Source: Candidatus Obscuribacteraceae bacterium (GTDB lineage: Bacteria; Cyanobacteriota; Vampirovibrionia; Obscuribacterales; Obscuribacteraceae). From it: a DNA stretch of 64,000 nt. The stretch covers positions 416,001 to 480,000 of the forward strand of contig JBGAHS010000001.1 of the NCBI GenBank assembly GCA_044226015.1, given 5' to 3'. The position numbers and the translations under genes are program-made. The notes under the pieces are model-generated. The model worked only from the letters and a program-made list of their open reading frames with translations. It had not been told where the DNA came from and ran no database searches. Every line of letters starts with the position of its first letter. Within the stretch, counting starts at the first letter, position 1. Shown one piece after another: positions 21,411 through 64,000 of this stretch.

Positions 21411-21908
21411 CTAACCTGCAGAGCCAGAACGGGACTCTCTCATCTCCTTCATCTGTACTCCAAGTTCGATATCGTCGTTGATGTAACTAGTCAAATATTC
21501 CAAAAACGATTTTCCAACGAGCAAAGGCGCTTCGTCCGCGACTATGTCCAGGCGGTAGACAGGCGGATCTTGCTCTCTAGTGTCAAAAAACATGAATACA
21601 TCATCGCGTATCAGATAAACAAAATGGAATGGAAGTAAATCGAAGTTTTTTTCAGCTGCATATCTTTCAGCCCTTGTCCGGCAGAATTTCACAAGCCCTG
21701 GATAGGTCATGATTACATCATTAGCCCAGTCTCCCGTCGCCTTACCCATGGTTCTCAAAAACTCTTTATAGGAACTCGGGAGCTTGATGCTGAAATGTTT
21801 TTCAATACCAGCGATTTCTTCATCAGAACATGCCACGATAGTTTCAGGAGTCGCGATCCCAGCGTCGATCAGCATCTTTGCCAGTTCTTGTGGTGTCTTA
21901 GCTTCCAT
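21411..21908 (-). CDS. SMI1/KNR4 (SUKH) family immunity protein
   Basis: CSDEEIAGIEKHFSIKLPSSYKEFL...DPPVY...SFLEYL; ATG overlaps the toxin stop codon (TAATG). Confidence 0.9.
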   Translation of the reverse strand: MEAKTPQELAKMLIDAGIATPETIVACSDEEIAGIEKHFSIKLPSSYKEFLRTMGKATGDWANDVIMTYPGLVKFCRTRAERYAAEKNFDLLPFHFVYLIRDDVFMFFDTREQDPPVYRLDIVADEAPLLVGKSFLEYLTSYINDDIELGVQMKEMRESRSGSAG

Positions 21909-46811: not shown

Positions 46812-46839
46812 AAGCCCGGACTCAGGTTCGGGCTTTTTT
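46812..46839 (+). terminator. Intrinsic terminator
   Basis: AAGCCCGGAC-TCAG-GTTCGGGCTT followed by TTTT. Confidence 0.8.
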
Positions 46840-46867
46840 GTTGAGCGGATACTGCTCTGTAAGTGTT

Positions 46868-46972
46868 GAGTGAATCATAGAGCGCCGCATTCTTGGCGGC
46901 ATTGGGATCTTACTCGCGGAGGAAATTGTCGAGTGAATCCGGGGGGCGCCGCCATCTTGGCGGCATCGGATC
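46868..46972. repeat. Two imperfect direct copies of a REP-like palindromic element
   Basis: GAGTGAATC...GCGCCGC(AT/CA)TCTTGGCGGCAT...GGATC at 46868 and 46931 (63-bp period). Confidence 0.65.
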
Positions 46973-46988
46973 CTGATTGGACCGTCAG

Positions 46989-48215
46989 CTAATATCTGGC
47001 GAGTGATGGCGCGAAGGCATCGTTCATGTACACGTGCTGAACCATGCGCTCGAAATCAAGCGTCAACTTATCCTCGGCGAACTTATCCTGAACGTTTTGC
47101 TTCAATTCGGCAAGTTGTGCGCTGCTAGGTGGTGTCTTGCGCCACTCCTCTAACCTTGCTGCCAGTGCTCCATCGGCGTTCATGTCCACCATCCAGTGCT
47201 CATCTTCCAAAATGTACTTTGCGCCACCGTGTGGATGGCACAAGACTGGAAGTCCCGAAATGGCGGCTTCAATAATCACTGCGCCCAGACCTTCGTAGAG
47301 ACTGCACAGAGCAAAGACATCTGCCAGGCGCATCATGTCTTGAACCTGCTTTTCCGGCACGGTGACAAATCTGACTCTATCCCCAAGCTTTTCTTTTCCC
47401 AGTTTTTGGAGCTGTTCGCCTTCTGGCTCTGGCTGTCCGCAGATAAGCAGGTGGCAGCGCTTGTCCTGAATCTTCGCTACTTCATTTATAAGGTGGTCAA
47501 TTCGTTTGTGGTGGCTGTTCCATGCAGAAACACAAATTACGATCCAATCATCAGCTGCATAACCATGTTCAGCACGCAGGTCCGCTTTGCTACGGGTTGA
47601 TATCATATGCGGTACTATGTTGGGAAGCACCGTCATTTTTGAGGCAGGAATTCCAAACCTCAGTGCTTCTTCGTAAGCATCAGTGTGCAGATGTTGGATG
47701 TAGTCAAATTGTTGGTAAGTTTGAGGGCGGAAGCCGCCGCCATTTGCAAAAATAATCTTGTATGGGTTGCCAGTAATTTTTCTGAACTCATAAAGAACAT
47801 GTGCCAGCGGCACTTCTTTTGTCCAAACGACTTCGGGCTGCCATTTCTCTTTTGACTCTTTGATCAAGCCGAAAGAGTAACTGGTTTGCTCAAGAGCATA
47901 AGCTATTCTCCAGAGCTTTTCTTTCTCAACAAAGCTCAGCATATTGAGCGGAAATTTGAGCCAATCATTCCGATTGATGCAGCTTATCTTCTTTGCGCCC
48001 GGGTATTCCGCGCCTGCGAAGAGTTTTACGTCCAGGTCTTGTTTATTTTGAGAGGTGACAGCGTTGAAGAATCGAGCAGTTGATATTTCAAAACCCCGAT
48101 TGATAGCTCCCAGACCGCTGCTGAACATTGCCAGCCGAATAGGGCGGGCAGTATCAAATGAACTGCGAGACAGGTCGTTCCTTTCTGCATTCGAGCCGCT
48201 AAATTCTTGCACCAT
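46989..48215 (-). CDS. Glycosyltransferase family 4 (GT-B)
   Basis: LPN, KRIDHLI, ADVFALCSLYEGLGAVIIEAAISGLPV (Ex7E motif); start at ATG 48215 or track TTG 48230. Confidence 0.9.
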   Translation of the reverse strand: MVQEFSGSNAERNDLSRSSFDTARPIRLAMFSSGLGAINRGFEISTARFFNAVTSQNKQDLDVKLFAGAEYPGAKKISCINRNDWLKFPLNMLSFVEKEKLWRIAYALEQTSYSFGLIKESKEKWQPEVVWTKEVPLAHVLYEFRKITGNPYKIIFANGGGFRPQTYQQFDYIQHLHTDAYEEALRFGIPASKMTVLPNIVPHMISTRSKADLRAEHGYAADDWIVICVSAWNSHHKRIDHLINEVAKIQDKRCHLLICGQPEPEGEQLQKLGKEKLGDRVRFVTVPEKQVQDMMRLADVFALCSLYEGLGAVIIEAAISGLPVLCHPHGGAKYILEDEHWMVDMNADGALAARLEEWRKTPPSSAQLAELKQNVQDKFAEDKLTLDFERMVQHVYMNDAFAPSLARY

Positions 48216-48317
48216 AATTGCGAATTCCAAAAATAATTCGAACGGGACGAGTTACCGGCAAAATTGGTTGAGCTAAATCAAGCAGAATACCTAATGTTAT
48301 TTTATCCAACATGTCGC

Positions 48318-51300
48318 TCAATCTAACCCTTGGAAATTGCGAACATAAGCAATACAGATTCTTCTACTTTCATCAACGAGGACCGGACAGGTGTAGACTG
48401 AACCAATCCCTCCGGAGTTCCCGTCATTTGGGATTTTTGCTTTGACTTGCAAAACATCTTGAAAGCCATGCTGAGCAATGACTTCGAAGAATTTGGGGTT
48501 CCCTTGAAATCCAGTGCCGTGAGATTTTGCTGCAGCTTCTTTAGCTGTCCAAATTACGGCTATGGCTCTGGCTTGCTCTGAAACAGCTAGCTTGTTGACC
48601 CAGGCGAGTTCATCTTTATTGAAGGCTAAATCAATGAAGCCATTCTCTCGTTCTTTGATCTCCTCCACGTCAATTCCCGCAAATCTTTGAGGCTCAGGGG
48701 CTTCAGCGATAGCAACGGCTGTACTATCGCTGTGCGATATCGAAATTTGGGGAAGCAATTTCGTGTCAACAGAGATGTGGGCGCGGAATTTCGCCTCTGC
48801 GTTTCCAGCCAGAGCGGTTCGAATTTCAATGTCAGCCGGTTTCAATTTTAATCCGTGGTAGTTTCTAAGATAAAAACGTACCGCGTCCTTAGCGGCAATT
48901 CGTCCGCATATCCAATCAAGGCGACGCTTTTCAGCCTTACCAATTCGTTTCCATTCGCTTTGTTCAGCCGGTGTAAGGATATAGTCGCTTAACCAATCAA
49001 GCGTGGTTTCGTCGGAAGGCAATTCGCTCTTATTAATGATGGAAACGGCAAGATTTTTTTCTTTCTTATCGATTTCGTATTCGGAGCAAATGAAATGCGC
49101 GGGGTCGTGAATGAAATTTTCTAGCTTTTCTGAAAGGAGAATGGCGCGGCTACTCACATCATTGACTCTGGCCAGCACCTGTCCATCCCAATTAGACAAC
49201 TCAATTCTTGCTTCAGTTCCTCGTTGAGTCATTGAACGCAGATTTGCCTGTGCATGCAATCTTTTACCTGTGTAATGACCATCATAGCCTTCGAAAAATT
49301 CGATGCTATCGATATGGAATGGTAATAGCGCTATAGCCGGAATGTTATGTTCGTACATCTGGTATAGGACGAATTGGCTTGAGTTGTCTAACAAGAGCGG
49401 GTCTAACACCATCTTCGCCTTGTCGACACTCTGTGATGTAAACCAATCATCGGCTGTACGGCAATCGACAGTTCCTTCGATGCTGCGGCGTGAAACTCTG
49501 TCAATGCTGCTGACTGATTGCATGCGTGGTCCATGGAACATGCTTCCTTGCTTGTACAAGCTATGAGGCGAAAGCTTTGAAGATCTGGCTTCGTCAAAAC
49601 TGAATTCCGATTTAGTTGGACCTGCTGCTAGCGATTCGTCAAATTCCACAACGCAAGAAGCTAGAATGTTGTTTTCATCTTCTTCTGCATCGGAAGTACA
49701 GATTCTTGCCTCCACTGTATTCTCTTTTGATGAACGCAGTTCCAAATTCAATGTCAGCGTTTCTTGTTCGCAGCGAATTCTTTTGTAAGCTCGAATATCT
49801 CGCAGTCGTATAACAACTTGCTCGGGGTAAATCAAACTGGCGCCTTCCGCCATTATTTCAAGCGCCACCATGAGTGGTAGCAGATGAACTCTGCTTGAAT
49901 GCTCTGTGCTGCATACATTGCCGCCTATGGCATGGTCCAATAAAAATTTGTGCTCGTTAGTATCAAGTTGAACTTGCAACACGAAGGCATCGTTGCTTGA
50001 CTGTAAGGCTGGAGATGGAATAAACGCAAATGATCCCGGCAAGGAAATAGATTCGTATTGCCGCATGAAGTCTTCCTCCTGGCTCGCTTGCATGTAGGCG
50101 AGCATCAGGTTTTCTTGCGTGTTCAAAAGTGATTGTTGAAACTCTTGCATGGTCGAGAGGTAAGTTAGCATCACATCACCAGGCAAGCCGATATCTCCGA
50201 CGAAGGGGTCGAGATCCTGGTCGATTTCATTTGCTAGCTCCGCGATAGTGGGGTCTGACAGATCAACCAATGATGGTAGATCGTTATCAGCCCATTGCAT
50301 GAACTGGTAAATCGCGTTGCTGACCTGAAGGCTCTCAAGCTGAAATTTGTCTCTGTCTACGCGGCGATGATAGAGCGGCATCAAGTTGACGTGAATACCG
50401 TTTGCGATCAGCTTTGCCAGAAGAACGTGGAATTGGTCTATTCCTCGTCGAGTTTGAAGATCGGCAGCAAGCGCAATATGTTCTTTGCCTTTTAGTACTT
50501 CCGAAATGAAAGGAATCAAGCCACCTTTTGGACCTGCCTCTACATATATTCTGCTGCCCTCGAGGTAAGTTTTTTCGATGGTTTGTCTCAGGCAAATCGT
50601 TTTTTCAAACAAGTCGGTCGAAATCTTTCTGATTTCAGCGCCGGACTCTGGATATTTTGACGCTAGAGAGCAAGACCATGATTCTATTGATGGTGCATTC
50701 ATGGTCAACATTTGCACTTCATCACTCTCATGGCTGACTTTGCCCGCGACCAGGGGCGTGTGATATGGCACCGCTACAGGCAGAGGCAGAAACTCGATGG
50801 ATTCTGCCTTTAGCTTCGAAGACAGCAAATCGATACTATCTCTGGTGCCTGAAATCAGAACACAGGTCTCACTTAAATCCGCACCGACATAAACTGGGGT
50901 TGCCATAGAATCCAGAACTGTTTTCAGTTTCCCATCAGTGGAAGCTGCAACCCTAATGGTTTTCAAATTGGCCAGTTGTGAAACTGACACCGAGCGAGAG
51001 ACTTGCGTGCTCAGGTGGTAAAAAGTCTGGGCTGCTTGAAACAGGTTGACCATTTCAGCCATGCACATCACAGTGAACTCGCCTGTGCTGCAGCCAATTA
51101 ATACATCTGCGTTGACATCTAGCTTCTTAAGTAGCGCGTAAATGGCGTATTGAGCAAGAATCAAGGTGATGACTGCGGAGTCCATTGTTGCCAGCATTGC
51201 GGGGCTGCTTCCTTGTTTCGAGCCTGCCACGGGAAAAATTGCTCTGCTGGGAACAGTTTTATCACCGGCCCTGAGCGCCAGCCTTTCGATGAAATCAAAG

Positions 51301-52811
51301 ACCTGTCGAATTTCTGGAAAATAGAAACAAAGGTCCTCCAGCATATTTGGGTATGCTGCGCCGAGACCCGCCAGAACAAAGGCAAGTTTGCCTGGTTTCG
51401 ATGCTGCTTCGCCAGAATAATAAATGCCTGTATGCCCGCTTCCGGTTGGAATGGATTTCGTAGCTGAGTTAGCCAGATGTTCAATGGCAAGAGCCAGAAA
51501 ATCACAGAACTCTTCGAATGTTCCAGCAATGATGCTCAAAGCAAACTTGCTTTCATTACTTCGCTGTACGCAATTAGTTAAGTAGGCTGATTCCCAGAGG
51601 GGAAGCTGCGCCAACATGGACAAATTATTTTGTGCTTTTAGGAGTTCTTGAAGAAGTTCTTCTCTGCTACCAGCAGAGTAAACGAAAAGTTCGCTTGATT
51701 GCTTCAGTAATTTGTTGACTGTGATCTCATCTATGTCATTTCCCCTTTCGCTCAGGAGAATGCCCTGTCTTTCCAGGCTTATGTAAGCACGCCGAGGATG
51801 CGCAGGTTCGGCGGGAGATACCGGATGCACCCAGGGGCGGGCTGCTTGGGTTTGCAAAATTGTATCCGGTAGTTTTTCGTTGTCGAGCTGCAACTTGTAA
51901 GATTCGAATTTCGAAGATGGTATCACTCGTTGGTGCAGAGCAAGGCATGACGATATCACTGCCATAAGCGGCGTGATTAACTTACTAGTGTGTGACAACG
52001 CCATGGCGAGGGATGAGGCAAAGCAAATTTGATCGTGTTTTGTCCATACGGCATCTTTCTGTGGCATTTCGGCCGAAGCGCGAGAACAATAGTTTCTCAA
52101 TTGCTTAAATGCGCTGGATAATTTCGCTGACTCTAACCAACGAGCGTCGCAAGTTTCTATAAAAGAGACTGCGCTCACTTCTACGTTCAAGTCAGCAAAT
52201 CGACTTAGTTCGGTTTGAAGTGAAAACAAGCAGGCGTCGTCCTGATCTTCTGCGGAATCCTCCTGCACGCTAGCTATTTGTGCAAGAGCAGGATGCTCAG
52301 CATTGCCATATGAATGCTGTACGTTAGCGTAAGAATTCAGCTTATTAGCTTTGTTAGCGGTTGCAAGCAAAACGGCAGCTGCGCAATCTGCGCCCTCCAT
52401 TTTGTCAAATGAGCAGTCCAGGGCAAAATCACATTCGCCTCTGTCTAGCCAATTCAGCGCTTCTGCCAGGCTGTCTTCGCTGCTGTCATATAGCATGATT
52501 GTGAGGTCGCGCGAATAATTTGACTGGAAGTGCTCTTGCAATGCAAATGCAATTTGTCCATCATTTAAATAGTCTTCGGATAAGCTCACAAAAATTGCAG
52601 TGTTTTGCGGAATCTGTTTTAGCCCCGCGTCAGCGAATGCTTCAACGCAAACCGCGATTAAAGTCTCATCTGAACTCAGTGCTGCTTCCCGATTTTGCTC
52701 CACCCCTGTGCGAAGAGGTGAATAATAGGCTTGCACCAAATCATGGACTGAGTTAATCGTTTTCAGTCTGCACGCAAGTCCTATTGCAACATGTGGAAGA
52801 GCTGGTCTCAT
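48318..52811 (-). CDS. PKS partner protein: inactive KS-like - AT - DH - 4'-phosphopantetheinyl transferase
   Basis: KS remnant (RPWVHP...HPRRAYIS, no catalytic DxAC or HGTGT); AT GCSTG and VPYHTP; DH FLLDHAIGG...LLP and DNSSQ; PPTase GRIAAKDA, ISISHS, GIDVE, WTAKEAAAK. Confidence 0.85.
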   Translation of the reverse strand: MRPALPHVAIGLACRLKTINSVHDLVQAYYSPLRTGVEQNREAALSSDETLIAVCVEAFADAGLKQIPQNTAIFVSLSEDYLNDGQIAFALQEHFQSNYSRDLTIMLYDSSEDSLAEALNWLDRGECDFALDCSFDKMEGADCAAAVLLATANKANKLNSYANVQHSYGNAEHPALAQIASVQEDSAEDQDDACLFSLQTELSRFADLNVEVSAVSFIETCDARWLESAKLSSAFKQLRNYCSRASAEMPQKDAVWTKHDQICFASSLAMALSHTSKLITPLMAVISSCLALHQRVIPSSKFESYKLQLDNEKLPDTILQTQAARPWVHPVSPAEPAHPRRAYISLERQGILLSERGNDIDEITVNKLLKQSSELFVYSAGSREELLQELLKAQNNLSMLAQLPLWESAYLTNCVQRSNESKFALSIIAGTFEEFCDFLALAIEHLANSATKSIPTGSGHTGIYYSGEAASKPGKLAFVLAGLGAAYPNMLEDLCFYFPEIRQVFDFIERLALRAGDKTVPSRAIFPVAGSKQGSSPAMLATMDSAVITLILAQYAIYALLKKLDVNADVLIGCSTGEFTVMCMAEMVNLFQAAQTFYHLSTQVSRSVSVSQLANLKTIRVAASTDGKLKTVLDSMATPVYVGADLSETCVLISGTRDSIDLLSSKLKAESIEFLPLPVAVPYHTPLVAGKVSHESDEVQMLTMNAPSIESWSCSLASKYPESGAEIRKISTDLFEKTICLRQTIEKTYLEGSRIYVEAGPKGGLIPFISEVLKGKEHIALAADLQTRRGIDQFHVLLAKLIANGIHVNLMPLYHRRVDRDKFQLESLQVSNAIYQFMQWADNDLPSLVDLSDPTIAELANEIDQDLDPFVGDIGLPGDVMLTYLSTMQEFQQSLLNTQENLMLAYMQASQEEDFMRQYESISLPGSFAFIPSPALQSSNDAFVLQVQLDTNEHKFLLDHAIGGNVCSTEHSSRVHLLPLMVALEIMAEGASLIYPEQVVIRLRDIRAYKRIRCEQETLTLNLELRSSKENTVEARICTSDAEEDENNILASCVVEFDESLAAGPTKSEFSFDEARSSKLSPHSLYKQGSMFHGPRMQSVSSIDRVSRRSIEGTVDCRTADDWFTSQSVDKAKMVLDPLLLDNSSQFVLYQMYEHNIPAIALLPFHIDSIEFFEGYDGHYTGKRLHAQANLRSMTQRGTEARIELSNWDGQVLARVNDVSSRAILLSEKLENFIHDPAHFICSEYEIDKKEKNLAVSIINKSELPSDETTLDWLSDYILTPAEQSEWKRIGKAEKRRLDWICGRIAAKDAVRFYLRNYHGLKLKPADIEIRTALAGNAEAKFRAHISVDTKLLPQISISHSDSTAVAIAEAPEPQRFAGIDVEEIKERENGFIDLAFNKDELAWVNKLAVSEQARAIAVIWTAKEAAAKSHGTGFQGNPKFFEVIAQHGFQDVLQVKAKIPNDGNSGGIGSVYTCPVLVDESRRICIAYVRNFQGLD

Positions 52812-55800
52812 TTGCTATTTTCGTTTTTTGATTTCGCCAGTCGATTTAGAGACTTACTGCCTGTGCCGCCCAAGCCTTCGATAAGCATAATAAGTCTGCC
52901 TACTTCGTCATAAACTGCCAGGTCACAAAGCAATTCACCATTTTTGCTTTCATTAGGAACTTTCACTGTTGCATTGAAGTTCTTTCCAACAGGAGAGCTG
53001 AAAAGGTGAAGCGTCTTGAAACCTACTGGTAACACTGTGATGTCCATGTAATGGCGCGCCCAAATGCCTGCCAGCTGCATGGCACTGTCCATCAATAGCG
53101 GGTCGATGAGCCAGGATTCTTTTCCTGATTCTTTCAATGCTTGATTAATCGGAGTAGATTTCAGCTTGCCACTAATACCATTTTTGCCGAGAGCGTGAAT
53201 GTTGCTTATGCCCTGGAAGAGTGGTCCGTGGAACATCCAATTATCATAAATGAAATCAACCGTAGGAAGATCGCTCTCTTCATCGATGAAAACACTGGGC
53301 ACAAACTCAGTTGTGAAAAGTGAATCTGCCGGTAATTTTGCCGGAACGTCTCGGCGTGATAAGACGGCGCGGGCGATGAAGTTCTTGCGGCTCTGGTTTG
53401 TGCCAGTACTTAGCGACACGTTCACGGTTATGTCAGAATCAGTTCTTGATTCCTCTTGCAGTGAAATGTAGAGATCTTTAGCACCACTCTCAATTACGAT
53501 GCCCTGTGGAATGTCGAGTCGTACGAGTTTACGAAATTCGAATTCTGAGTATTTGAATTGGGCAGCTTCTGCTAATAATTCCGTTGCCACTGCCATCGGT
53601 AGCACCGGCATGCCGTTGAATGTATGGTCATTGAGGTAAGTGTCAATGTTAGTGTCAATACGCAGTCTTAGCAACATCGAACCTGCGCTGTCCTGTACGA
53701 CTTCAGCTCGATGAAGTCGTGCACCACGCGCCTTTATGTTTTGAGACGCATGTGCACCATTGCCGCCTATGTGAGCCGCTGTGCCGTTGGCTCCATTGCT
53801 GTCATCGTGCTTTTGGGGCAGCATTCCCACAAGAAGAACTTCGGCGTCGGCTTTCTTTCCGCTGCTCAGTTCCTGGTAGAAGTTTTTGCGTCCGTCCATT
53901 GCTTCAATCATTGACCAGCCAAAGCGGGCGAACACTGACTCAAGCTCTGCTTGTGCCATGCCACCTCTCCAGGGACCCCAACCGATGCTCAGCACACGAG
54001 CGTTAGAGCGATTATTTAGCTGTATTGCCAACTTGTTCAATACTTCGTTGGCAGCCACATAGTCTATTTGTCCAGCATTGCCAGTTCTGCCTACAACGGA
54101 GGAAAAGAGAACTAAGTACTTCAAAGAATCAAGATCAAGCCTGCTTGCTAGCGTGAGTGCTGCATCTATCTTCGTACTGAAAACTCTGTCGAATGATTCC
54201 AGCGATTTGTCTTTCAAGAATGCGTCTTCGATTACTCCAGCACCTTGAATTACAACGTCAATTTTGCCGAAGCTATCGTAGAGCTTATCTAACAAATTAG
54301 AGAATGCTGCGTGATCTCTCACATCTAATGAATAGTAGTGAACCTTTGCGCCTGTTGCTTCAATCTTCGCAAGATTGTTGCGAATTTCTCTATCTTTAAT
54401 CAGCTGCTGGTACACATGTTCTATTGCGGGAACAGACAGCGTCTTTCCTTCTTTTCGCAATCTATCCATGATTGCTGCTTTCAATTCTTTGACCGTGGAC
54501 AATCCTTTGTATTGGGGATCTTCCTGAGCCACAGGACGTGCTCCGCGTCCGATGATTACGAAGTGTGGTTTATGCTGTTCTGCGATTTCCAGGCAGAGCT
54601 CAGCGGTTATTCCACGTGCTCCACCTGTCACGAGCACGACTGAACTGCTGTCGAGATCAAGTTCTGCGCTTTCAGCGTCTTGAATTGGTGATGGAACCGC
54701 GACCGGTGTGAATCGTTTGCCATCTTTATAAGCAACTTCAACCTGACTCTTATCGGTATTTCCAAGCTCTGTAAGAACTGCCTGGGCAATCACGAATTTA
54801 TCATCAAGCTCTTCAAAGTCCAGGCATCGCGAGAGCGATGATGGAAATTCTCTTGAAATAGATTTGATCATTCCGGCGCTTGCTGCTTGAATCGGATTAA
54901 CTGGGTACTTTGATTCCAACCCGAAGCTGCCACCAAGGCTAGTGGCTGCAATTAATTTGAATCCTTCATTAGACTTCGCCAGAGGAACCAGAAGTTCCTT
55001 CACCGTGGTGAAAAGGCTTCTCGGTATCAAGTAGCCCTGTTCTTTTTCTTCACGTGACGGCGTAACTTGTTGACGTGCTGCTAGCGGAAGCAGGTGGATT
55101 AACCCAGCAATTCGCATTTGTTGCTTGCTAACAGCTGTGTTGAGGGCTTCAACTGCATGCTGACTGCAGAGATCTATTTCGAGTTTGCTTGAACTTGGCG
55201 AGATAGAAACTGCCACACCGGAATTGGGTTTGTGTTTGAGAATAAGTGTCTTGGCTCCGGCTGTTTTCAGCTTCGTTGCCACCATTTCTGCCAGCCCATC
55301 TTCAGAGTCGCTAATCAGATACAACCCAGTAAGGCTAATTGGAGATTTAGCCAGAGCCGGAAGTTCTTGCATTTTGACTAGAGCACGACCAATCAGGCTC
55401 TCTGTTTTCTTTGTTTGCGCTGCTCGCGTTTCTACCTTTGCAGAGCTGGCATTCGGGCGAGCTCTGCTTGGGTGCACCAGTTCGAGCACTTCAGGACGTG
55501 CGCCCTTAGCGAGGTCGGCCAGGTCACTGCGAATCCAATCGGTAATGCCAGAGAGCGTGCGCGTACCAGCTAACTTCTCGATACTTCCTTCAAGTTCATT
55601 TTGAATCTCTTCAGGTAACAGTTTTCGGAAGTTATTCAAAATTTCAACTCGTTTAATTGAGTCGATTCCAAGGTCAGCTTCCAGGTCGAGGCTTGGGTCT
55701 AGCATATCTGCGGGATAACCAGTGCGTTCTGAGACAATTTCGATAAGCTGAATGATCAACTTTTCGCTGTCTATCCCATGGCTGCCATTACCATTGCCGT

Positions 55801-58800
55801 TGCCACCATTGCCATTGCTCTTTGCTCCATTGGTACCAGCTGCGGTGTCATGGTGTATGTCGGAGCCGCCATCCTGGCGGCGATCCCCGGATCCGTTTCC
55901 GGATGCAGCTCCAGCTTGGGTAGTGGGTTGTGCTGTCGGATGTGTACCATTACCCGGTGTGTATGTTGCCGTCTGGGGCTTTGGCGTTTGCTGATTTGCA
56001 TTTTGCAAATCATTTGAATTCGCAGGCATGTGTTTTGTCTGCGCTGATTGCTGTGCTTGCAACGCAGAATTGTTAGCCATCAGGTTTTGAGCGTTGGCGC
56101 CGTTTTGCCCACCTCGTTGGAGGTAGCTCATCATTACCTTCTCTTGCGTTTGGAGGAATGAGTTCGTCATTTCAAGCATCGAACGCTGAAATTCCATCAT
56201 GACCTGAGCTTTAGGAGTGCCAGCCACTGCTGGCGAAGGCGGCTGCGAAATGGATTGAGCGCCTGAGCTAGTGTTTGGACGAAGTTCCGGTTGTGTAGAG
56301 CCATTCTTATGCGGTGGCGATACTTGTTGCGAGCCTGTTGCTGAATACGAACTCGCTTTCGGCGCGATGGATCCTTGCACTTGCGATGCTTTTGCAGCTG
56401 TCGAACTCGATGAAACTACGGGCTTTGCGGCTGGCGTTTGAGTTGTAATCTCTCTGGCATTGCTTTGGTTGTTGTCTGCGGCAAGTCTTGCGTGACGAAC
56501 TGCTTCCTCTGCTGGACGGTTCGCTGCCAGAGTGTTTTTGCCGTCAAATCGTTTGACATGCGATCCATTAATAAGGTACATGAGTTTTGGCTTTGATTTT
56601 TGAAGCGCCGATTTTTCAGGAAGAATATTCTCAACTCTGTGCTTATACAGCTTGGATTGATCCGCATCTACACCAGCTATTAACGCTTGCGCAATCAAAT
56701 GCTGCAGCTGAGTGATACCATGTTTTCCGTTTCTTTCCAGCGACAAAGTTAGGTGCTCTTTGCCATCAAGTATGTCAGAGACAAGTCCAGTGAGAACGGT
56801 GCCAGGACCGCACTCGACAAATATACGAGCACCAGCTTCGTACATTTGTTCAACCATCTGCTGAAACTCAACGGGTTTCACTAAATGATCGCAAAGCAAT
56901 GATGCAATTTGCTCTGGCTTACTTGGGTAAGGGTTAGCCAGCGTGTTTGAATACACTGGTATTTCAGGAGCATGAAGAGTCACATCAACAATGGCTTTTG
57001 ATAAGGCTTTGAGAGCTGGTTCCATAAGAGGTGAGTGGAAAGCAGCGGACACAGCAATGGGTTTTGACTTGACCTTGTTTTCATCAAGAACGCGGCTAGC
57101 TTCATCAAGCGCTGAAACTTCGCCCGAAATGATGCATTGCTTTGGAGAGTTTAAATTTGCAAGTGTGACATCCTTCAAATGTGCAATAAGACGTCGTACT
57201 TCGTTGCCGTTAGCCGCTACAGCTGCCATACTTCCCGACTTCTTCCCATTTGTCGATTTGAGAATATGACCTCTCGCTTCTGAAACTCTGAAGAGGTCAT
57301 CGGTATTCATTGTTCCGGCAGCGCATAGTGCTACGTATTCACCAAAACTATGACCAGCACACATGTCTGGTTTAATTCCGAGGTCTTCCATAAGGGAATA
57401 TGCAGCGATATCGGCCGCAGCAATAGCAGGTTGTGCTACGTGCGTGTCGGTCAGCATCGCTCTTTGTTGTTTACGACCGGTCTCGTTGAAGACCGGAGTT
57501 GGGAAGACAAATCGGCTCAGTTTCTGTGTGAACTTCTCTGCAAGAACGCGGTCTGCTGTTTCGAAAGTCTCTCTTACGCAGGCAAATGAGAGACTCAGAT
57601 CACCAAGCATGTTCAGTTGCTGCGAACCCTGGCCGGGAAATAAGAACGCAACTTTTCCAAAAGCTTCGTGAAGGCGCTCTTCGAAAAACACACCTCGTGG
57701 ATCTTTCAGGCTCTTCTTGCTTTCATCTTTAATCACAGATTTTGCAAGTTCCAATTTCTTGAGCAAGTCCTCGCCACTGCTTGCGATAACAGCAAGCGTG
57801 TGGTGATGGTGCTTAGTGTTTGCACAAGGGGGCATCGAACTTTGAACCAGATGGTGTCTGTAAGCCAACTCGAAAAGGCTGGCGATATCATGGTTACCTG
57901 ATGGTCCTCTGTGTTGGCTTGCGTTTTCCAACATCTTCTTGCAGTTATTTTCCAACGACTCAATTTGCTTTTCGAGTTGTGTTCTGCTTGCTGTACGCAG
58001 TGTAAATAGTTCAGTTGGGAAATCTCGCACTGCAGATTCTTGTCGGTAGTGCTTTTGACCTTCATATTCTTCCAGTACTGTGTGGAAGTTCGTGCCACCG
58101 AAGCCGAATGCACTAACACCAGCTCTGCGTGGATGCTGCAACTCTTGCTTGTTGTGAATCCAGGGGCGCACTTCAGTGTTAATAAAGAATGGCGAACTTT
58201 CAAAGTTGCATGCTGGGTTCGGATTCTCCACACCCATAGTTGGAGGAAGAACTTTATGGTAGAGAGCCCGAGCCACTTTAATTACAGAAGCAAGACCTGC
58301 GGCGCACTTCGTATGCCCAATCATTGTTTTTACTGAACCAAGGGCACATACCTGTTGTGCTGCTTCGTGTTCTTCAAAAACTCGGCGTAATGCTTCGAAC
58401 TCGGCTTTGTCACCAGCCACGGTGCCTGTGCCGTGAGCTTCTACGAGTCCGACGGTAGATGGTGAAACGCCAGCGTCATCGTAAGCGCGCTCGAGCGCGA
58501 CCATCTGCCCTGCTGGTCGCGGAGCTGTAAGGCTGAGATCTCTGCCATCGGATGAACCGCCGATGCCGCGAACAAGTGCGTAAATTCTGTCGCCATCTCT
58601 TTCAGCATCTGACAATCGTTTCAACACGAGTACAGCCATTCCCTCGCTGATGACGATGCCGTCTGCGCTGGCGTCAAATGTTCGGCAACGACCACGAGGC
58701 GAGAGTGCATGCGTCTTGCTGAAACTCAGGAAGTCGCCCGGTTGATTATGGGTGTCTGTCGCAGCTAGAAGCACCATGTCGCTAGAACCGGCTCTCAACT

Positions 58801-61585
58801 CTTTCATGCCGATGTACAGAGCCGCAAGTGATGACGCGCAGGCTGCATCGACGCAGAAATTGATGCCGCCTAAATCGAATCTATTTGCCACGCGCCCTGC
58901 CACTACGTTCCCCAAATATCCAGGGAAAGAGTCTTCAGTCCATTCTGGCAAGCGGGCTTCGAGCTTCTTCCTATATTCGGGATCAAGGTCACTAAGAGTC
59001 CAGTCGAGCATCGCCCTTATGCCGTAGAAAGAAGTAATCGGTCCATGTCCTGCGTTTGCTAAAACTATTGAAGTTCGCTCTTTGGGAAATGCTCGTTTTT
59101 GATAGCCGGCATCCTGAAGAGCTGCTCGCGTTACTTCCAAAATGAGCAACTGCATTGGGTCTACTGATGCAAGGCTTGCAGGAGGAATTCCGTAGCTTGA
59201 TGGGTCGAAGGGAATATCCTTAAGGAAACCTCCCCACTTAGAGTAGATTTTGTCTTTCTCTAGCGGGTTTTCGTTGTACATCTTGGTCCAGTCCCACTGA
59301 TCAATCGGGACTTCCTCGATGGTATCAACCTTGTTCAAAATGTTCTGCCAGTAGGTTTCCAGATCATTCGCTTTGGGAAACAGGCATGACATTCCAACTA
59401 TGGCGATCGGCTCGTGCTGAGGCTCGTATGATTTTTTAGACGGGGCACTCTTCTTTTCGCCAACAGACTGAAGGTACATATCGGCCTGGTTTGAGACAGA
59501 CTCGTGCAAATCCTTGATACTAGTGACCTTGTTGTGCATTGAGGCAACCTGGCCGATCATGTACATGCCATCAGCCCATTGCTTCTCATTGGCGACTTTC
59601 ACCAACTTACTGCCACCAGAACCGGCTTCGCCTCTTGCCAGACCTTTGCTGGCGACTCGCAAGCGACCCAGGTTCATAAGCTCAAGTTCTTGACGCAGTT
59701 CATTTTTTCCCATGCCCTCAGATTCAAGTTTCTTACGCTTGTCGTCGAACACTCTTTTGTATGGCGAATCGATGCATCGAATTGCGTGACCTGGTCCAGT
59801 TTCAAGCAATACTGTATCTTCGCACTTCAGAGCTGCTTCCTGGAATTTTTCTACGATGGCTCCTGCACTGACAGCTTCTTTTGTGAAGAGATAAGCCGTT
59901 CCCATCAGCACGCCGATGCAAATGCCTCGCTCGACTAGCGGTGCCGCCAATGCTGCAACCATGGCACTAGATATGGTGTCATGAATACCGCCTGCGAAGA
60001 CTATGTGATATTCGCTAGGGTTAGCCTTTGGTGGAATCGAAGTGAGTAGAACATCAATCATGCTTTCCCAGAGCACGAAGCTTGAGCGAGGTCCGACGTG
60101 ACCCCCGCACTCTTTACCTTCGAAAATGAATCTCTTGGCACCTAACTCTATGAATGACTCCAACAGGACAGGCGATGGTACGTGCAAGTAGGTTTTAATT
60201 CCTAGTGCCTCGAGTTCTTTGGCCTGGTCAGGGCGTCCACCAGCTATCAAGGCGCAAGGTGGTTTGTGTTTTAGAACCACTTGAAGCTGTTCTTGACGTA
60301 ATTCTGGGGGAACGAATCCCAACAATCCAACTCCCCATGTGCCGCCGGCCAGATCTTTTGAGCATTGCTCAAGCAATGGTTCAATCTCTGATTTGCGCAT
60401 CAAGGACAGTGCCAGGAAAGGCAAGCCGCCGCCTTTTTGTACTTCGTAGGCAAATTCGGCCGTATCAGAAACGCGCGTCATCGCACCCTGCAATACAGGG
60501 TACTTGCAGCCATGTGAAGCCGCCAGGGGGCTGTCTTCTGCAAGGGCATGTTGAGCTTTCGCCAGCTCGAGATTGGTCTTCGCGTGGGCGCGAATAGCTG
60601 CAATCACAGAAGCGACGCTCTGATACTTGCGAGCGAGCGCTGCCGCAAACGCGATGTCTTGACCAAGCGGGCAATGCGATGGCAACTGGCTCTTTGCTAT
60701 CTGAGCCGAGTGCTGTAGAAAATGTCGAAGCAGTCCTGGTAGTGCATTGGCTTCGGGGGCAAACTGAAGATTTCTTGTATTATCAAGCTCACCTTTGTGA
60801 GTGGATGATGACTTTAGAATCTGGCTCTGACGCTTAGATAGCGCCATCTTCAATGAATCATCTCCGGGACGATTCCAGACGCGGAACTGTTCCTGTCCAT
60901 TGCTGATTATCTCAGTTTCGGTTCCATCAAAATTGGAGAGCTTCTCCTTTTGCTCGATTGTCAGCGGAGATTCTCTTGTTAGTAAAAGTTGTGAATGCAA
61001 AACTACGCCGCTGCCACCACCAGCTAGTACTGCTGCTGCGGTGTTGATGCCTACGCCACCTTGAATCCAGATAGGCAGCTTCACGGCTGGACGCAATCTT
61101 TGCAATAGAACATAACTTGTTTCTTCGCCGACTCGGCCGCTTGCTTCGTGACCTTTTGCGATCAACGCATCTGCATCAGCAGCTTCTGCAAGTTTTGCCT
61201 CTGTTAGACTGACGCACTCTACAAAGACTTTGAAATGAAGTTTATGGAATTCTGCAATGACGGCGCTCAGGCTCTTCTGTTCGAATTGTCTGTCCCTGAC
61301 GCAAAGGATAACAACTCGCTCTGTGCATTGACTCTCGCTAATTTTCTTGATTTGCGGTTTTAGATGCTCTATTTGTTCGGCACCGCATCTGATACCAACA
61401 CTGCTGCCGCATGCCAGCAAGTCATCGATGCATTTCGATAAGTCATCGCTTTCTTCGAAATACTCCAAGTCCATGATGCCAATTGCTCCAGCTCTTGCTG
61501 CTGCAATAGCAATTCCTGGATAAGCATCTTTTACTGCCCATGCTTGCGGTGTTAGCGCGATGATTCCTAGTTCTGGCGTCTTCAC
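52808..61585 (-). CDS. Iterative type I PKS/FAS, Pfa-like: ER(NMO/FabK-like) x2 - KS - AT - ACP - KR - DH
   Basis: KGHEASGRVG and EGKECGGHVG (flavin TIM-barrel ER); KS DAACASS/EAHGTGT/IGHTK; AT GHSFG/AAFHS; ACP DLGIDSIKRVEI; KR TGGARGI and YVAAN; DH LNDHTFNGMPVLP/DSAMQ. GTG 61585 has AGGAG RBS; track start is TTG 61627. Confidence 0.93.
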   Translation of the reverse strand: MKTPELGIIALTPQAWAVKDAYPGIAIAAARAGAIGIMDLEYFEESDDLSKCIDDLLACGSSVGIRCGAEQIEHLKPQIKKISESQCTERVVILCVRDRQFEQKSLSAVIAEFHKLHFKVFVECVSLTEAKLAEAADADALIAKGHEASGRVGEETSYVLLQRLRPAVKLPIWIQGGVGINTAAAVLAGGGSGVVLHSQLLLTRESPLTIEQKEKLSNFDGTETEIISNGQEQFRVWNRPGDDSLKMALSKRQSQILKSSSTHKGELDNTRNLQFAPEANALPGLLRHFLQHSAQIAKSQLPSHCPLGQDIAFAAALARKYQSVASVIAAIRAHAKTNLELAKAQHALAEDSPLAASHGCKYPVLQGAMTRVSDTAEFAYEVQKGGGLPFLALSLMRKSEIEPLLEQCSKDLAGGTWGVGLLGFVPPELRQEQLQVVLKHKPPCALIAGGRPDQAKELEALGIKTYLHVPSPVLLESFIELGAKRFIFEGKECGGHVGPRSSFVLWESMIDVLLTSIPPKANPSEYHIVFAGGIHDTISSAMVAALAAPLVERGICIGVLMGTAYLFTKEAVSAGAIVEKFQEAALKCEDTVLLETGPGHAIRCIDSPYKRVFDDKRKKLESEGMGKNELRQELELMNLGRLRVASKGLARGEAGSGGSKLVKVANEKQWADGMYMIGQVASMHNKVTSIKDLHESVSNQADMYLQSVGEKKSAPSKKSYEPQHEPIAIVGMSCLFPKANDLETYWQNILNKVDTIEEVPIDQWDWTKMYNENPLEKDKIYSKWGGFLKDIPFDPSSYGIPPASLASVDPMQLLILEVTRAALQDAGYQKRAFPKERTSIVLANAGHGPITSFYGIRAMLDWTLSDLDPEYRKKLEARLPEWTEDSFPGYLGNVVAGRVANRFDLGGINFCVDAACASSLAALYIGMKELRAGSSDMVLLAATDTHNQPGDFLSFSKTHALSPRGRCRTFDASADGIVISEGMAVLVLKRLSDAERDGDRIYALVRGIGGSSDGRDLSLTAPRPAGQMVALERAYDDAGVSPSTVGLVEAHGTGTVAGDKAEFEALRRVFEEHEAAQQVCALGSVKTMIGHTKCAAGLASVIKVARALYHKVLPPTMGVENPNPACNFESSPFFINTEVRPWIHNKQELQHPRRAGVSAFGFGGTNFHTVLEEYEGQKHYRQESAVRDFPTELFTLRTASRTQLEKQIESLENNCKKMLENASQHRGPSGNHDIASLFELAYRHHLVQSSMPPCANTKHHHHTLAVIASSGEDLLKKLELAKSVIKDESKKSLKDPRGVFFEERLHEAFGKVAFLFPGQGSQQLNMLGDLSLSFACVRETFETADRVLAEKFTQKLSRFVFPTPVFNETGRKQQRAMLTDTHVAQPAIAAADIAAYSLMEDLGIKPDMCAGHSFGEYVALCAAGTMNTDDLFRVSEARGHILKSTNGKKSGSMAAVAANGNEVRRLIAHLKDVTLANLNSPKQCIISGEVSALDEASRVLDENKVKSKPIAVSAAFHSPLMEPALKALSKAIVDVTLHAPEIPVYSNTLANPYPSKPEQIASLLCDHLVKPVEFQQMVEQMYEAGARIFVECGPGTVLTGLVSDILDGKEHLTLSLERNGKHGITQLQHLIAQALIAGVDADQSKLYKHRVENILPEKSALQKSKPKLMYLINGSHVKRFDGKNTLAANRPAEEAVRHARLAADNNQSNAREITTQTPAAKPVVSSSSTAAKASQVQGSIAPKASSYSATGSQQVSPPHKNGSTQPELRPNTSSGAQSISQPPSPAVAGTPKAQVMMEFQRSMLEMTNSFLQTQEKVMMSYLQRGGQNGANAQNLMANNSALQAQQSAQTKHMPANSNDLQNANQQTPKPQTATYTPGNGTHPTAQPTTQAGAASGNGSGDRRQDGGSDIHHDTAAGTNGAKSNGNGGNGNGNGSHGIDSEKLIIQLIEIVSERTGYPADMLDPSLDLEADLGIDSIKRVEILNNFRKLLPEEIQNELEGSIEKLAGTRTLSGITDWIRSDLADLAKGARPEVLELVHPSRARPNASSAKVETRAAQTKKTESLIGRALVKMQELPALAKSPISLTGLYLISDSEDGLAEMVATKLKTAGAKTLILKHKPNSGVAVSISPSSSKLEIDLCSQHAVEALNTAVSKQQMRIAGLIHLLPLAARQQVTPSREEKEQGYLIPRSLFTTVKELLVPLAKSNEGFKLIAATSLGGSFGLESKYPVNPIQAASAGMIKSISREFPSSLSRCLDFEELDDKFVIAQAVLTELGNTDKSQVEVAYKDGKRFTPVAVPSPIQDAESAELDLDSSSVVLVTGGARGITAELCLEIAEQHKPHFVIIGRGARPVAQEDPQYKGLSTVKELKAAIMDRLRKEGKTLSVPAIEHVYQQLIKDREIRNNLAKIEATGAKVHYYSLDVRDHAAFSNLLDKLYDSFGKIDVVIQGAGVIEDAFLKDKSLESFDRVFSTKIDAALTLASRLDLDSLKYLVLFSSVVGRTGNAGQIDYVAANEVLNKLAIQLNNRSNARVLSIGWGPWRGGMAQAELESVFARFGWSMIEAMDGRKNFYQELSSGKKADAEVLLVGMLPQKHDDSNGANGTAAHIGGNGAHASQNIKARGARLHRAEVVQDSAGSMLLRLRIDTNIDTYLNDHTFNGMPVLPMAVATELLAEAAQFKYSEFEFRKLVRLDIPQGIVIESGAKDLYISLQEESRTDSDITVNVSLSTGTNQSRKNFIARAVLSRRDVPAKLPADSLFTTEFVPSVFIDEESDLPTVDFIYDNWMFHGPLFQGISNIHALGKNGISGKLKSTPINQALKESGKESWLIDPLLMDSAMQLAGIWARHYMDITVLPVGFKTLHLFSSPVGKNFNATVKVPNESKNGELLCDLAVYDEVGRLIMLIEGLGGTGSKSLNRLAKSKNENSK

Positions 61586-61804
61586 GAACCCGGTATCTCC
61601 TGTAGGTCGTCGCTTCGTGCTCAGCAATCGCTCATGACTGGTGCAACACGAAGACAGCTCTTCGCTCGCTTAAAAAAGCGCAATTAATTATATAAAGCCT
61701 GACTGTATCTGCCATTTGATAGCTTTTAATTAGGACTTCGCTGGGATGTCAGGGGTGTCAAAAATCCGCTAGTTTTGGTGTGAAAGTTGACCCTTTCTTC
61801 CCTT

Positions 61805-63010
61805 CTAAATCACCACAATCTCACTCGGGCTGCGCAATTCGTAGGTGACACCGCGCCATTGAATTCTATTTGTCGTGAGCGAATATAGCGTCATCCACGG
61901 TAAAGCAAGGTGGGCCAGGGGTAGCGCCATTACGAATCTCCAGGCGGAATTTTGCAGTTCGCTCTCTCGGTCGCGAAGCACGCTTTGCCAAAGGTCTTGC
62001 CCCTTTAACAGGAAATAAACTTCAATCGGCAAAACTGTTAGTCCAGCCAGCAATGAATAGAAATATATTGGGGACGAGTTGCTTATACAGACTGCTAAAG
62101 TCCACAAAATGCTCAGCAACCAGGTTGCCATGATGCCAGCTCTAAAAATGCCTCGACGCCACAAAGCCGGATAATAAACCTTGGTTAAGATTAGTTGTCG
62201 ATTTGTCCATTCAATTACTTCTGGCCAATCGCCATCGCCGTGGCTGGCTACGAGGCATTGTGGAACGAACTTCACTTTGAGCCCAAGCTCTTTAACAGCC
62301 GTTGTCAGCGATAAATCGTCATCTGCAGCTTGATCCCAGTGAGACAAAACGTCCGCCTTTTCGAATATCTCTCGCTTTATTGCCATGGCGCCGCCCCAGG
62401 CGAAACAGTATTTGGGGCTCGCCATCTCCCAGGCAGAAACGCGATTCCAAATACTTCGTAGCATCGAAGCCGCATCACCACGATGAGGGATATAGAAGCG
62501 ATATCCTGTTGTGGCACCGACCCCAGGCTCTTCCAATCGTCCAACGAGCTGAGTGAGAAAATCCTGTCTTGCAATCACATCTGAGTCAACGAACGCGATT
62601 GCTTCTATGTCAGGGGAAAGCAGCTTTAGCGCCTCTAATTGGTTGTTCAATTTTTGCGCTCGTTTATTGTTGATGCCTGCAACAACCACTCTGCTTTTAA
62701 CATGTGGAAATTCGTCTGCCACCGCTTTAAGTGCGGGAAACGCGGGGTCGTTTTCTGTTGCTACTGCAAAAATAATTTCGAAATGAGGCAGTCCATCCTT
62801 TTTGTAATCTTGCTCAAGCAGCTTGCGCATATTGTCGTGGAAGCCTGGGTCTAAACCTTTGCAGGGCAGTACGACAGCCAATTTCGGGCGATAGCTTGGC
62901 TCTGGTTTTCCCATTTCTTCGGCAACATATTTGTACATGCGATTGAACGCATAAGCCTGTGAAATAGTTACCGCAACGGTGATAAAGCTCAGAACGCAAA
63001 GGAAAAACAT
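61805..63010 (-). CDS. Membrane GT2/GT21-like glycosyltransferase (ceramide/hopanoid glucosyltransferase-like)
   Basis: N-terminal TM, VVLPCKGLD, KLNN, FVDSD, WGGAMA, DDD, EWTNRQ, C-terminal TMs and IQWRGVTY; ATG 63010 likely (track GTG 63094). Confidence 0.85.
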   Translation of the reverse strand: MFFLCVLSFITVAVTISQAYAFNRMYKYVAEEMGKPEPSYRPKLAVVLPCKGLDPGFHDNMRKLLEQDYKKDGLPHFEIIFAVATENDPAFPALKAVADEFPHVKSRVVVAGINNKRAQKLNNQLEALKLLSPDIEAIAFVDSDVIARQDFLTQLVGRLEEPGVGATTGYRFYIPHRGDAASMLRSIWNRVSAWEMASPKYCFAWGGAMAIKREIFEKADVLSHWDQAADDDLSLTTAVKELGLKVKFVPQCLVASHGDGDWPEVIEWTNRQLILTKVYYPALWRRGIFRAGIMATWLLSILWTLAVCISNSSPIYFYSLLAGLTVLPIEVYFLLKGQDLWQSVLRDRESELQNSAWRFVMALPLAHLALPWMTLYSLTTNRIQWRGVTYELRSPSEIVVI

Positions 63011-63234
63011 CGAATTAGGCTTGGCTGAATGATTGTCTGAATAATTTGGCTGTTTCGGAGCTAGAGTATAATGCCATCTGCCTTTGCCTTCCACTGAAAT
63101 GCATTCATTTCTATTGAAGCCATAGTGCTCGTCAGCTGAAGCAGCCGACCTTCATGGTCAGAGAATCCTCTCTTGCTAAGGCTTGCGCTCCGCTTGACTT
63201 GTTCGGCTTCAGAATCATAACTCAACTAAAGATA

Positions 63235-64000
63235 ATGTCTTTAATTCGAAAACTCGTATACCAGGTCTTCCGCCGCATGGCCGGCAAAGAGATGTCTAGC
63301 CTGGAAGCTGACTGTAAGAATCCACGGCTTGCACAGCTGCGGAAATTGCGCGAAATAGTTTCACTAAACAAGGCTAGCGCATACGGCGTTGACCATCGCT
63401 TTTCCGAGTTCGCTGACTTAAGTGACTCTGAATTGATGCTTTCACAGTTTCGAGATAATGTGCCTATCGCTGATTATGAGGCTCACCGCCCTTATATCAA
63501 TCGTATCTGGAATGGTGAGAGTAATGTATTGAGTCCTGAACAACCTTTTATGTTTGCTACCACCAGTGGTACCATGGCCGAACCTAAGTACATTCCTGTG
63601 ACAGATTCTTACATCAGGGAATTCCGTCATGCTTCGGTCGCATCCGGCTATTTCATGTTGGAAAAGTTTCCGGGAATTTCAAATGGTATTACTTTGTCAG
63701 TATTTTCTCCGGCTCAAGAAGGGCAGAGTCCGGGGGGCATACCTTTTGGCGCTATCTCGGGTGGGCTCTACACAAGAGAGCCCTGGTTGGTCAAAAAGTT
63801 CATCGCCCCAATTCCCTACGAGGTTTACCTCTGTAAGGACTATGAAACAAAGTACTATTCATTATTACGTTCTGCGCTTGTTCTGCCGGTGGCGAACTTT
63901 TACACGCTGAACCCCAGCACTATAGTTGTGTTACTAAAACGACTCGATAAGTATGCTGCCCAGCTAGTGCAAGATGTTGAAGATGGAACATTTAATCCTC
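63235..64000 (+). CDS. GH3 family acyl-adenylate/amido synthetase (3' end outside window)
   Basis: Hand translation from ATG 63235: AQLRKLREIV...SAYG...FRDNVPIADYE...PYINRIWNGESNVL...FATTSGTMAEPKYIPVT...GIPFGAISG; open to the window edge. Confidence 0.88.
   Translation, partial: MSLIRKLVYQVFRRMAGKEMSSLEADCKNPRLAQLRKLREIVSLNKASAYGVDHRFSEFADLSDSELMLSQFRDNVPIADYEAHRPYINRIWNGESNVLSPEQPFMFATTSGTMAEPKYIPVTDSYIREFRHASVASGYFMLEKFPGISNGITLSVFSPAQEGQSPGGIPFGAISGGLYTREPWLVKKFIAPIPYEVYLCKDYETKYYSLLRSALVLPVANFYTLNPSTIVVLLKRLDKYAAQLVQDVEDGTFNP

Follow-up and report, generated by a model that had tools for sequence, protein, structure and literature searches.

A synthase, a GH3 ligase and two glycosyltransferases shared across Obscuribacterales: a candidate pathway to a glycosylated long-chain fatty amide

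What kind of lipid is made by a two-protein polyketide synthase (PKS) lying between two glycosyltransferase genes in a non-photosynthetic relative of cyanobacteria, and how does the chain leave the enzyme? The question is raised by a window of 64,000 nucleotides, the whole stretch of DNA analysed here (Candidatus Obscuribacteraceae bacterium, assembly GCA_044226015.1, genome G000 below; contig JBGAHS010000001.1, positions 416,001 to 480,000). A reading made from the letters alone (the sequence-only reading) had described in it a self-contained, Pfa-like four-gene candidate pathway for a novel glycolipid. The gene content, gene order, intact catalytic motifs and joint presence or absence of the genes were observed directly, and a pathway of five genes, found in most of the Obscuribacterales, is proposed from them. 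As far as its chemistry can be deduced, the chances are about even, or slightly better, that its product is a long-chain fatty amide, glycosylated and destined for the cell envelope. The placement of the host proved correct, named close homologues of synthase A and of the GH3 protein belonging to Ca. Obscuribacterales or Melainabacteria. This uncultured order, in which lipids have hardly been studied at all, has the pathway in about four-fifths of its genomes, and the five genes form a concrete, expressible set for what is probably a lipid that defines the lineage. Each component is familiar by itself (the synthase class, amide ligases of the GH3 family, GT21 enzymes); no description of the synthase combined with GH3 and GT21/GT4 was found in searches of the open-access literature, supplements aside.

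Four co-oriented genes occupy the minus strand, as had been reported. The GT21 gene (61805..63010; 401 aa from the ATG at 63010, with an in-frame GTG further upstream at 63094) is followed by the genes for synthase A (52808..61585), synthase B (48318..52811) and GT4 (46989..48230; PF00534). The start of synthase A is most likely the GTG at 61585, which has AGGAG upstream and gives 2925 aa, the same length as database entry P0001; an alternative TTG at 61627 would give 2939 aa. The stop of A and the start of B overlap in ATGA. According to Pfam and NCBIfam, synthase A has the order ER(NMO)x2-KS-AT-ACP-KR-DH, that is, a pseudo-enoylreductase (ER1), a FabK-like enoylreductase (ER2), a ketosynthase (KS), a malonyl-type acyltransferase (AT), one acyl carrier protein (ACP), a ketoreductase (KR) and a hot-dog dehydratase (DH). 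Synthase B (1497 aa) consists of a decayed KS, a non-malonyl AT (AT-B), a second DH and a C-terminal phosphopantetheinyl transferase (PPTase), for which Pfam and NCBIfam give AT-DH-PPTase. Domain and motif scans confirmed the single ACP and the built-in PPTase and, as expected from the sequence-only reading, detected neither a thioesterase nor a terminal reductase domain in A or B. Nor does the locus as a whole encode a thioesterase, a reductase, a type III PKS or a free ACP. The GC content of the locus equals that of the remaining window, and a promoter scan downstream of B gave nothing.

A fifth gene had been overlooked. It encodes a GH3-family acyl-adenylate amido synthetase, and its start lies on the opposite strand, 143 bases away from that of GT21 (63154..64000, plus strand, extending beyond the window as far as G000:C11:480956; the product has 600 aa, or 573 aa if translation starts at the ATG at 63235). 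The short divergent intergenic region between the two starts (63011..63153) probably represents a shared promoter region of GT21 and GH3. This divergent arrangement is conserved in the locus comparison, which covered 41 regions from 36 genomes: GT21 lies immediately upstream of A in 28/41 regions, and GH3 is the divergent neighbour of the synthase or of GT21 in 25 of the 27 regions in which a gene upstream of A or GT21 is visible. GT4 is located within the locus in 11/41 regions, and the remaining neighbours are variable. Just downstream of the window's GT4, a GC-rich plus-strand hairpin with a T run (46812-46835) and two imperfect direct repeats 63-64 bases apart (46861-46969) were noticed; a 12-base core has six occurrences in the genome.

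Do these genes belong together? In 80 genomes of the order with completeness of at least 85%, the synthase (scored by ER2) was present in 66. The GH3 orthologue, detected at E 1e-122, was found in 63 of these 66 and in none of the 14 synthase-negative genomes, the first number rising to 65 when the split copies in G004 and G016 are counted; in G037, the locus ends at a contig edge. GT21 showed 63/66 and 0/14, and GT4, detected in 58 genomes, 57/66 and 1/14. The co-conservation of glycosyltransferases with the PKS, which the sequence-only reading had put forward as its own test, was thus observed, while its self-contained set of four genes has to be given up, GH3 being the most constant partner of the synthase. 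All four genes (synthase, GH3, GT21 and GT4) were absent in 6/6 genomes of one genus, g18. A first sample had yielded the synthase in 35/40 genomes of the order, some as fragments, and in 0/21 genomes from other orders within the class; a different, KS-first PKS is present in G060. A sample of 400 genomes of the phylum gave a synthase match in only four others. The synthase is a near-core trait of the order, not a sporadic cluster.

Five of the 34 genomes in an RpoB tree lack the synthase, and the starred branches force four changes to account for them, so that at least four separate losses of the synthase are required on this tree (G032, frameshifted, four outgroups, and G008, G010, G014, G025 and G036, with no usable canonical RpoB, were left out). 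The pattern is more than the deletion of a single block, because GT21 and GT4 were kept side by side at a site distant from the synthase locus in G012 and G021, and GT4 was kept unlinked in seven of the genomes examined. The position of GT4 varies in general: it is downstream of B in the window's genus and elsewhere beside GH3, beside GT21 or unlinked. G498 and G499 (94% complete) have GH3 directly beside A and neither glycosyltransferase, which fits GH3 acting before the sugars are added; the nested profile of synthase, GH3, GT21 and GT4 fits the same order of action.

It is very unlikely that the genes share only a locus and regulation and have separate products, the synthase feeding very-long-chain acyl groups into another pathway and GH3 and the glycosyltransferases acting on ordinary lipids such as diacylglycerol. 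Unlinked GT21 and GT4 still track the synthase, with the near-absence from synthase-negative genomes given above, and a second GH3 paralogue is kept in all 36 family genomes, whereas the cluster GH3 is lost with the synthase. Separate products would agree with G498 and G499, which do without the glycosyltransferases, with the presence of FAS II genes and lpxC, and with a GH3 of the Legionella legionellol cluster that is dispensable (PMC5640695). The type II fatty acid synthesis (FAS II) genes in question are fabD, fabH, plsX and a fabF-like gene; since they and lpxC are present, the synthase is not obviously the primary source of fatty acids and a replacement of lipopolysaccharide is not indicated. 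That the glycosylated fatty amide is an exported surfactant, signal or antagonist instead of a structural envelope lipid is quite unlikely as well. An MFS transporter adjoins GT4 in several genomes, the pathway was lost at least four times, and two genera have extra GH3 copies, all of which would suit an exported product; set against this, the pathway is kept in single copy in 66/80 genomes, spread over both families, which looks like housekeeping, and no exporter is conserved with the core or present at the window's locus.

To which class does the synthase belong? The best annotated match of A was a synthase of Beijerinckia indica (46% identity over 90% of ER-ER-KS-AT; 40% over aa 22-2045), which Shulse and Allen grouped with ArsA of Azotobacter (A. 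vinelandii) as Type P (PMC3098273). The KS of A forms a clade with those of Beijerinckia and other ER-first synthases (FastTree support 94 and 89, not starred) and lies outside the clade of three PfaA/Hgl-like references, so the label Pfa-like does not hold by KS phylogeny. Judged by sequence, its nearest characterised relative is neither PfaA nor HglE but ArsA/ArsD, the very-long-chain fatty acid synthase of Type P. ArsA hands a C22-C26 chain directly to ArsB/ArsC (PMC3098273, PMC4824345, PMC6274091). The two systems share the ER-ER-KS-AT-ACP-KR large subunit, the DH-PPTase partner (24% identity, E 7e-33, between the DH-PPTase half of B and a Beijerinckia ArsD-like protein) and the ER-first KS clade. 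They differ in that the present A has its own DH and B an extra KS and AT, and in that the partners here are GH3, GT21 and GT4 and no type III PKS, to which the Ars chain goes. The earlier view of a long-chain lipid synthase is supported, its type being that of the secondary-lipid synthases.

All 23 full-length orthologues of A retain the catalytic residues of KS (Cys-His-His), ACP (Ser), KR (Tyr) and DH (His/Asp), and also those of the AT, GHS with Arg at Ser+25; each has a single ACP motif. The xEAGGH motif, catalytic in TIM-barrel enoylreductases (xExGGH; PMC13311796), is intact in ER2 of all 23, whereas the corresponding position of ER1 carries His in one, Arg in 20 and Leu in two orthologues. 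The reductive set announced by the sequence-only reading therefore stands for KR, DH and ER2 but not for ER1, which lacks the catalytic His in 22/23 and is probably a structural, non-catalytic partner of ER2. A passed the PfaA-like KS-MAT model TIGR02813 (1197 bits; cut-off 1010), in agreement with the PfaA-like character proposed earlier, but the structure matches of both enoylreductases were FabK/NMO chains, not PfaD.

With the polyunsaturated fatty acid (PUFA; Pfa) and Hgl systems, the synthase shares the iterative KS-MAT family, a flavin TIM-barrel ER and a second, non-malonyl AT as in PfaB. It is unlike them in its one ACP (no Pfa-type tandem ACPs), fused FabK-like enoylreductases, PKS-type dehydratases and lack of KS-CLF and terminal reductase; FabA-type DH/isomerase, KS-CLF and PfaD-type ER were absent, and only PS-DH/PKS_DH_N domains were found. 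The Hgl pathway ends in the terminal thioester reductase HglB/HetM, and no reductase of this type was present in A, B or the conserved neighbours. It is highly improbable that the genes form a Type P system for phenolic lipids (alkylresorcinols), or a PUFA system, with the glycosyltransferases acting on the phenol. The closest named homologue is indeed the Beijerinckia Type P synthase, whose cluster (plasmid NC_010578.1) encodes a DH-PPTase, a GT4 and an ABC exporter besides two type III PKSs, and TIGR02813 is passed. However, type III PKS (PF02797) was absent from G000, from 3/5 relatives and from the loci, the other two relatives having an unlinked copy, and the alkylresorcinol route was rejected; there is one ACP and no FabA-type DH/isomerase, and a BLAST comparison of the window's GT4 with the Beijerinckia glycosyltransferase returned no match at E 1e-3.

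Release of the chain may be a matter for synthase B. The active-site Ser of AT-B is kept in 30/30 orthologues within the motif G[CVF]STG (here GCSTG, with PYH); Cys, Val or Phe replaces the His preceding it, and Arg at Ser+25 occurs in 0/30, versus 23/23 in the AT of A. Since the Ser is kept while this His and Arg are lost, AT-B is probably not a malonyl transferase, as judged from knowledge of the AT family and PMC12895367. PfaB is described there as a terminal AT, and thioesterase activity was shown for a PfaB-type AT (PMC8003026).

The KS of B had been described as inactive. It is dead in the window, yet the triad is intact in 15/30 orthologues and decayed in the other 15, the window's copy among them, and the dead KS is a derived state of the window's lineage. 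Approximately 0.5 Mb from the locus on the same contig (G000:C11:996108-998905; L109:6108-8905), a duplicate of A's linker-ACP accompanies a stand-alone B-type KS with an intact triad, so the four genes are not self-contained in this respect either. This site adjoins convergent fabD-fabH-plsX genes, and its KS nests in the KS-B clade with support of 100. Among the 15 genomes in which KS-B has decayed, seven have such a trans copy (G000, G002-G006 and G025; a DH accompanies it in some), and none was found in the other eight. Given decay in half of the B proteins, with a trans copy in seven and none found in eight, the second KS is optional, and in the window's genus it may act in trans. The DH of B is lost in G008, G011, G012, G021, G498 and G499.

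Similar two-gene synthases had been expected in other phyla, and 236 relatives of AT-B were found in GTDB. The design ER-ER-KS-AT-ACP(n)-KR(-DH) plus KS-AT-DH-PPTase occurs in Fischerella and other cyanobacteria, Nevskiales (4-5 ACPs), Acidobacteria, Entotheonella and Streptomyces, and their KS-B and AT-B cluster with the Obscuribacterales counterparts; these synthases probably overlap types M-O of Shulse and Allen. They share the two-protein architecture and differ in their downstream partners. In the 80 loci fetched, where DNA upstream of A mostly fell outside the flank, a phosphodiesterase-family protein was present in 53, an alpha/beta hydrolase in 39 and a free ACP in about 58 (approximate, including ACP-linked larger proteins), along with TauD and, in some cyanobacteria, sulfotransferases (L184-L263). 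GH3, GT21 and GT4 were found at none of these 80 loci, again with the region upstream of A mostly uncovered; four cyanobacterial genomes examined whole had no GT21 or GT4 orthologues and only distant GH3s. The synthase belongs to a known, partly characterised class, and the set of partners (GH3, GT21 and GT4) is the special part. Distant relatives carry off-take partners of the kinds absent from the locus (thioesterase, reductase, type III PKS or free ACP); as each has a means of chain off-take and the constant parts here are AT-B and GH3, the order acid, amide, mono- and diglycoside is favoured.

What would GH3 contribute? The protein matches Pfam GH3, GH3_M and GH3_C (N, M and C domains), and the three nucleotide-binding motifs defined in PMC12493201 are intact in 22/22 aligned orthologues. 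OlsH, a GH3 of Singulisphaera acidiphila, converts free fatty acid, ATP and ornithine to N-acyl-ornithine (PMC12493201). The present GH3 resembles the OlsH/OlsI system in its fold, its intact motifs and the proposed chemistry (fatty acid, ATP and amine to amide); it differs in being fed by a megasynthase and followed by glycosyltransferases, with no specific OlsI-like partner. In the main text of an amino-lipid review (PMC12971839), the terms searched brought up no glycosylated or polyketide-derived amino lipid.

That GH3 instead primes the synthase by adenylating a starter acid for the ACP, or makes an ester, the glycosyltransferases acting on a hydroxy-acyl chain to give an O-glycoside like the heterocyst glycolipids with no amino acid, is unlikely but of some weight. 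The co-occurrence data apply to it equally, the variable second KS and DH could leave a hydroxyl, and in other phyla AT-B stands beside a free ACP and the phosphodiesterase-family protein and so may be a transacylase. On the other side, a terminal reductase is found in none of the 41 locus regions. In ArsA-like systems, moreover, KS and AT need no outside primer. Characterised GH3 enzymes, as far as PMC12493201 and PMC12971839 report them, form amides from free acids.

Several further observations concern GH3 and its possible partners. An alpha/beta hydrolase (window 37798-38898) was rejected as an OlsI-like or thioesterase partner, being multi-copy and present in 4/5 synthase-negative genomes of the sample. 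It is one of two Hydrolase_4 alpha/beta hydrolases (34314-36248 and 37798-38898, plus strand) about 8-12 kb from the cluster, one of them thioredoxin-fused; they lie near the cluster in several genomes of the genus and are not co-distributed with it. The second GH3 paralogue mentioned above is 36% identical and located in a separate operon (L110:2021-9171; G000:C1:57021-64171) with an alpha/beta-hydrolase-like ORF, an enolase-superfamily enzyme and three NAD-dependent epimerase/reductases, possibly a second amide-lipid pathway. The extra cluster-type GH3 copies of two genera (L290:8365-10074 in G471 and L291:8453-10138 in G474) adjoin a gene of about 500 aa with no assigned family, an RDD protein, LptF/G and Lnt, and in G474 also a PMT-like membrane glycosyltransferase. 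GH3 matched no viral contigs, and plasmid matches were only 24-28% identical. A single-sequence structure prediction of GH3 was unusable (predicted local distance difference test, pLDDT, 32).

Which lipid do the glycosyltransferases accept? GT21 was assigned by PF13506 (E 7e-15) and has conserved DxD and DD motifs and three hydrophobic segments; no NCBIfam equivalog scored above its cut-off for GT4. GT21 resembles UGCG and HpnI in PF13506, in its N- and C-terminal membrane segments and in its best PDB match, ceramide glucosyltransferase (E 2.7e-12). Unlike them, it remained below the cut-off of the HpnI model TIGR03472 (103.5 bits versus 310), and neither a hopanoid cyclase nor, among the candidates scanned, a serine palmitoyltransferase (SPT) was found in the genome. 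Squalene-hopene cyclase (PF13243) was found neither in G000 nor in five relatives, and the hopanoid route was rejected. None of the ten PF00155 matches (PLP enzymes) scanned, out of 26, passed an SPT cut-off, the best being Kbl and BioF-like proteins. With no cyclase found and no SPT among the ten, neither known GT21 acceptor pathway is evident, and the acceptor of GT21 would have to be another lipid.

In the proposed route, the PPTase of B would activate the ACP of A. Repeated KS-AT-KR-DH-ER cycles of A with malonyl-CoA would build a long, fully reduced chain, as in ArsA/ArsD (C22-C26), with ER1 as the likely non-catalytic partner of ER2. Tuning of chain length or oxidation might fall to the second DH and to the B-type KS, an optional element provided in cis, in trans or not at all. 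AT-B, devoid of the malonyl-binding Arg, would likely take the finished chain off the ACP and free the acid, like PfaB-type ATs. GH3 would then adenylate the acid and condense it with an amine, probably an amino acid; membrane-bound GT21 would place a first sugar on a hydroxyl of the amide lipid, and GT4 a second. Such a scheme suggests an off-loading mode for thioesterase-less Type P-like synthases that operate without a type III PKS. A more specific proposal, a glycosphingolipid-like signature membrane lipid formed independently of SPT (very-long chain from a Type P-like megasynthase, release by AT-B, GH3 amide, GT21 and GT4 sugars, trans ACP-KS in one genus), is tentative and clearly short of an even chance. 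If true, it would represent a new class of glyco-amidolipids and a lipid biomarker for a lineage near Cyanobacteria, and it offers a test of whether bacteria have reached a glucosylceramide-like lipid convergently.

A number of observations pull away from the glycosylated fatty amide. As to distribution, the genomes are metagenome-assembled, so that single absences may be gaps (G000 is 92% complete); three of the genes mostly sit next to one another; in G494, GT4 occurs without its partners, and it is missing from nine synthase-positive genomes. GT4 tracks the synthase in three to four of four independent pairs, too few for significance (sign test, p 0.125). As to release, the PfaB motifs (GYSxG, with Tyr before Ser, and [NT]A[IM]H) do not occur in AT-B; in an AT tree from which five long-branch or partial AT groups were dropped, AT-B stood apart from the PfaB ATs, although with two references a joint clade was not rejected (approximately unbiased test, p 0.545). 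Bacterial PfaB is, in addition, an acyltransferase and not a hydrolase alone (PMC12895367). The GH3 protein scored 97.9 bits with the OlsH model NF052613, well below the cut-off of 620, and knockout of the legionellol-cluster GH3 had no effect (PMC5640695). The SPT scan covered 10 of 26 matches in a genome that is 92% complete. Finally, a fully reduced chain offers no hydroxyl to which a sugar could be attached.

Three observations lie outside the pathway. One is a second, divergent rpoB paralogue above the TIGR02013 cut-off (G000:C11:705006-707501; the canonical rpoB is at C11:1301372-1304497); almost every Obscuribacterales genome searched has it, against 0/4 genomes from other orders of the class. 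Elsewhere in the window, an RHS-repeat protein is encoded on the minus strand (2-5575) and continues off the window, and a 593-aa protein (21908-23689, minus strand) has a C-terminal BURPS668_1122-family deaminase domain; both resemble interbacterial polymorphic toxins.

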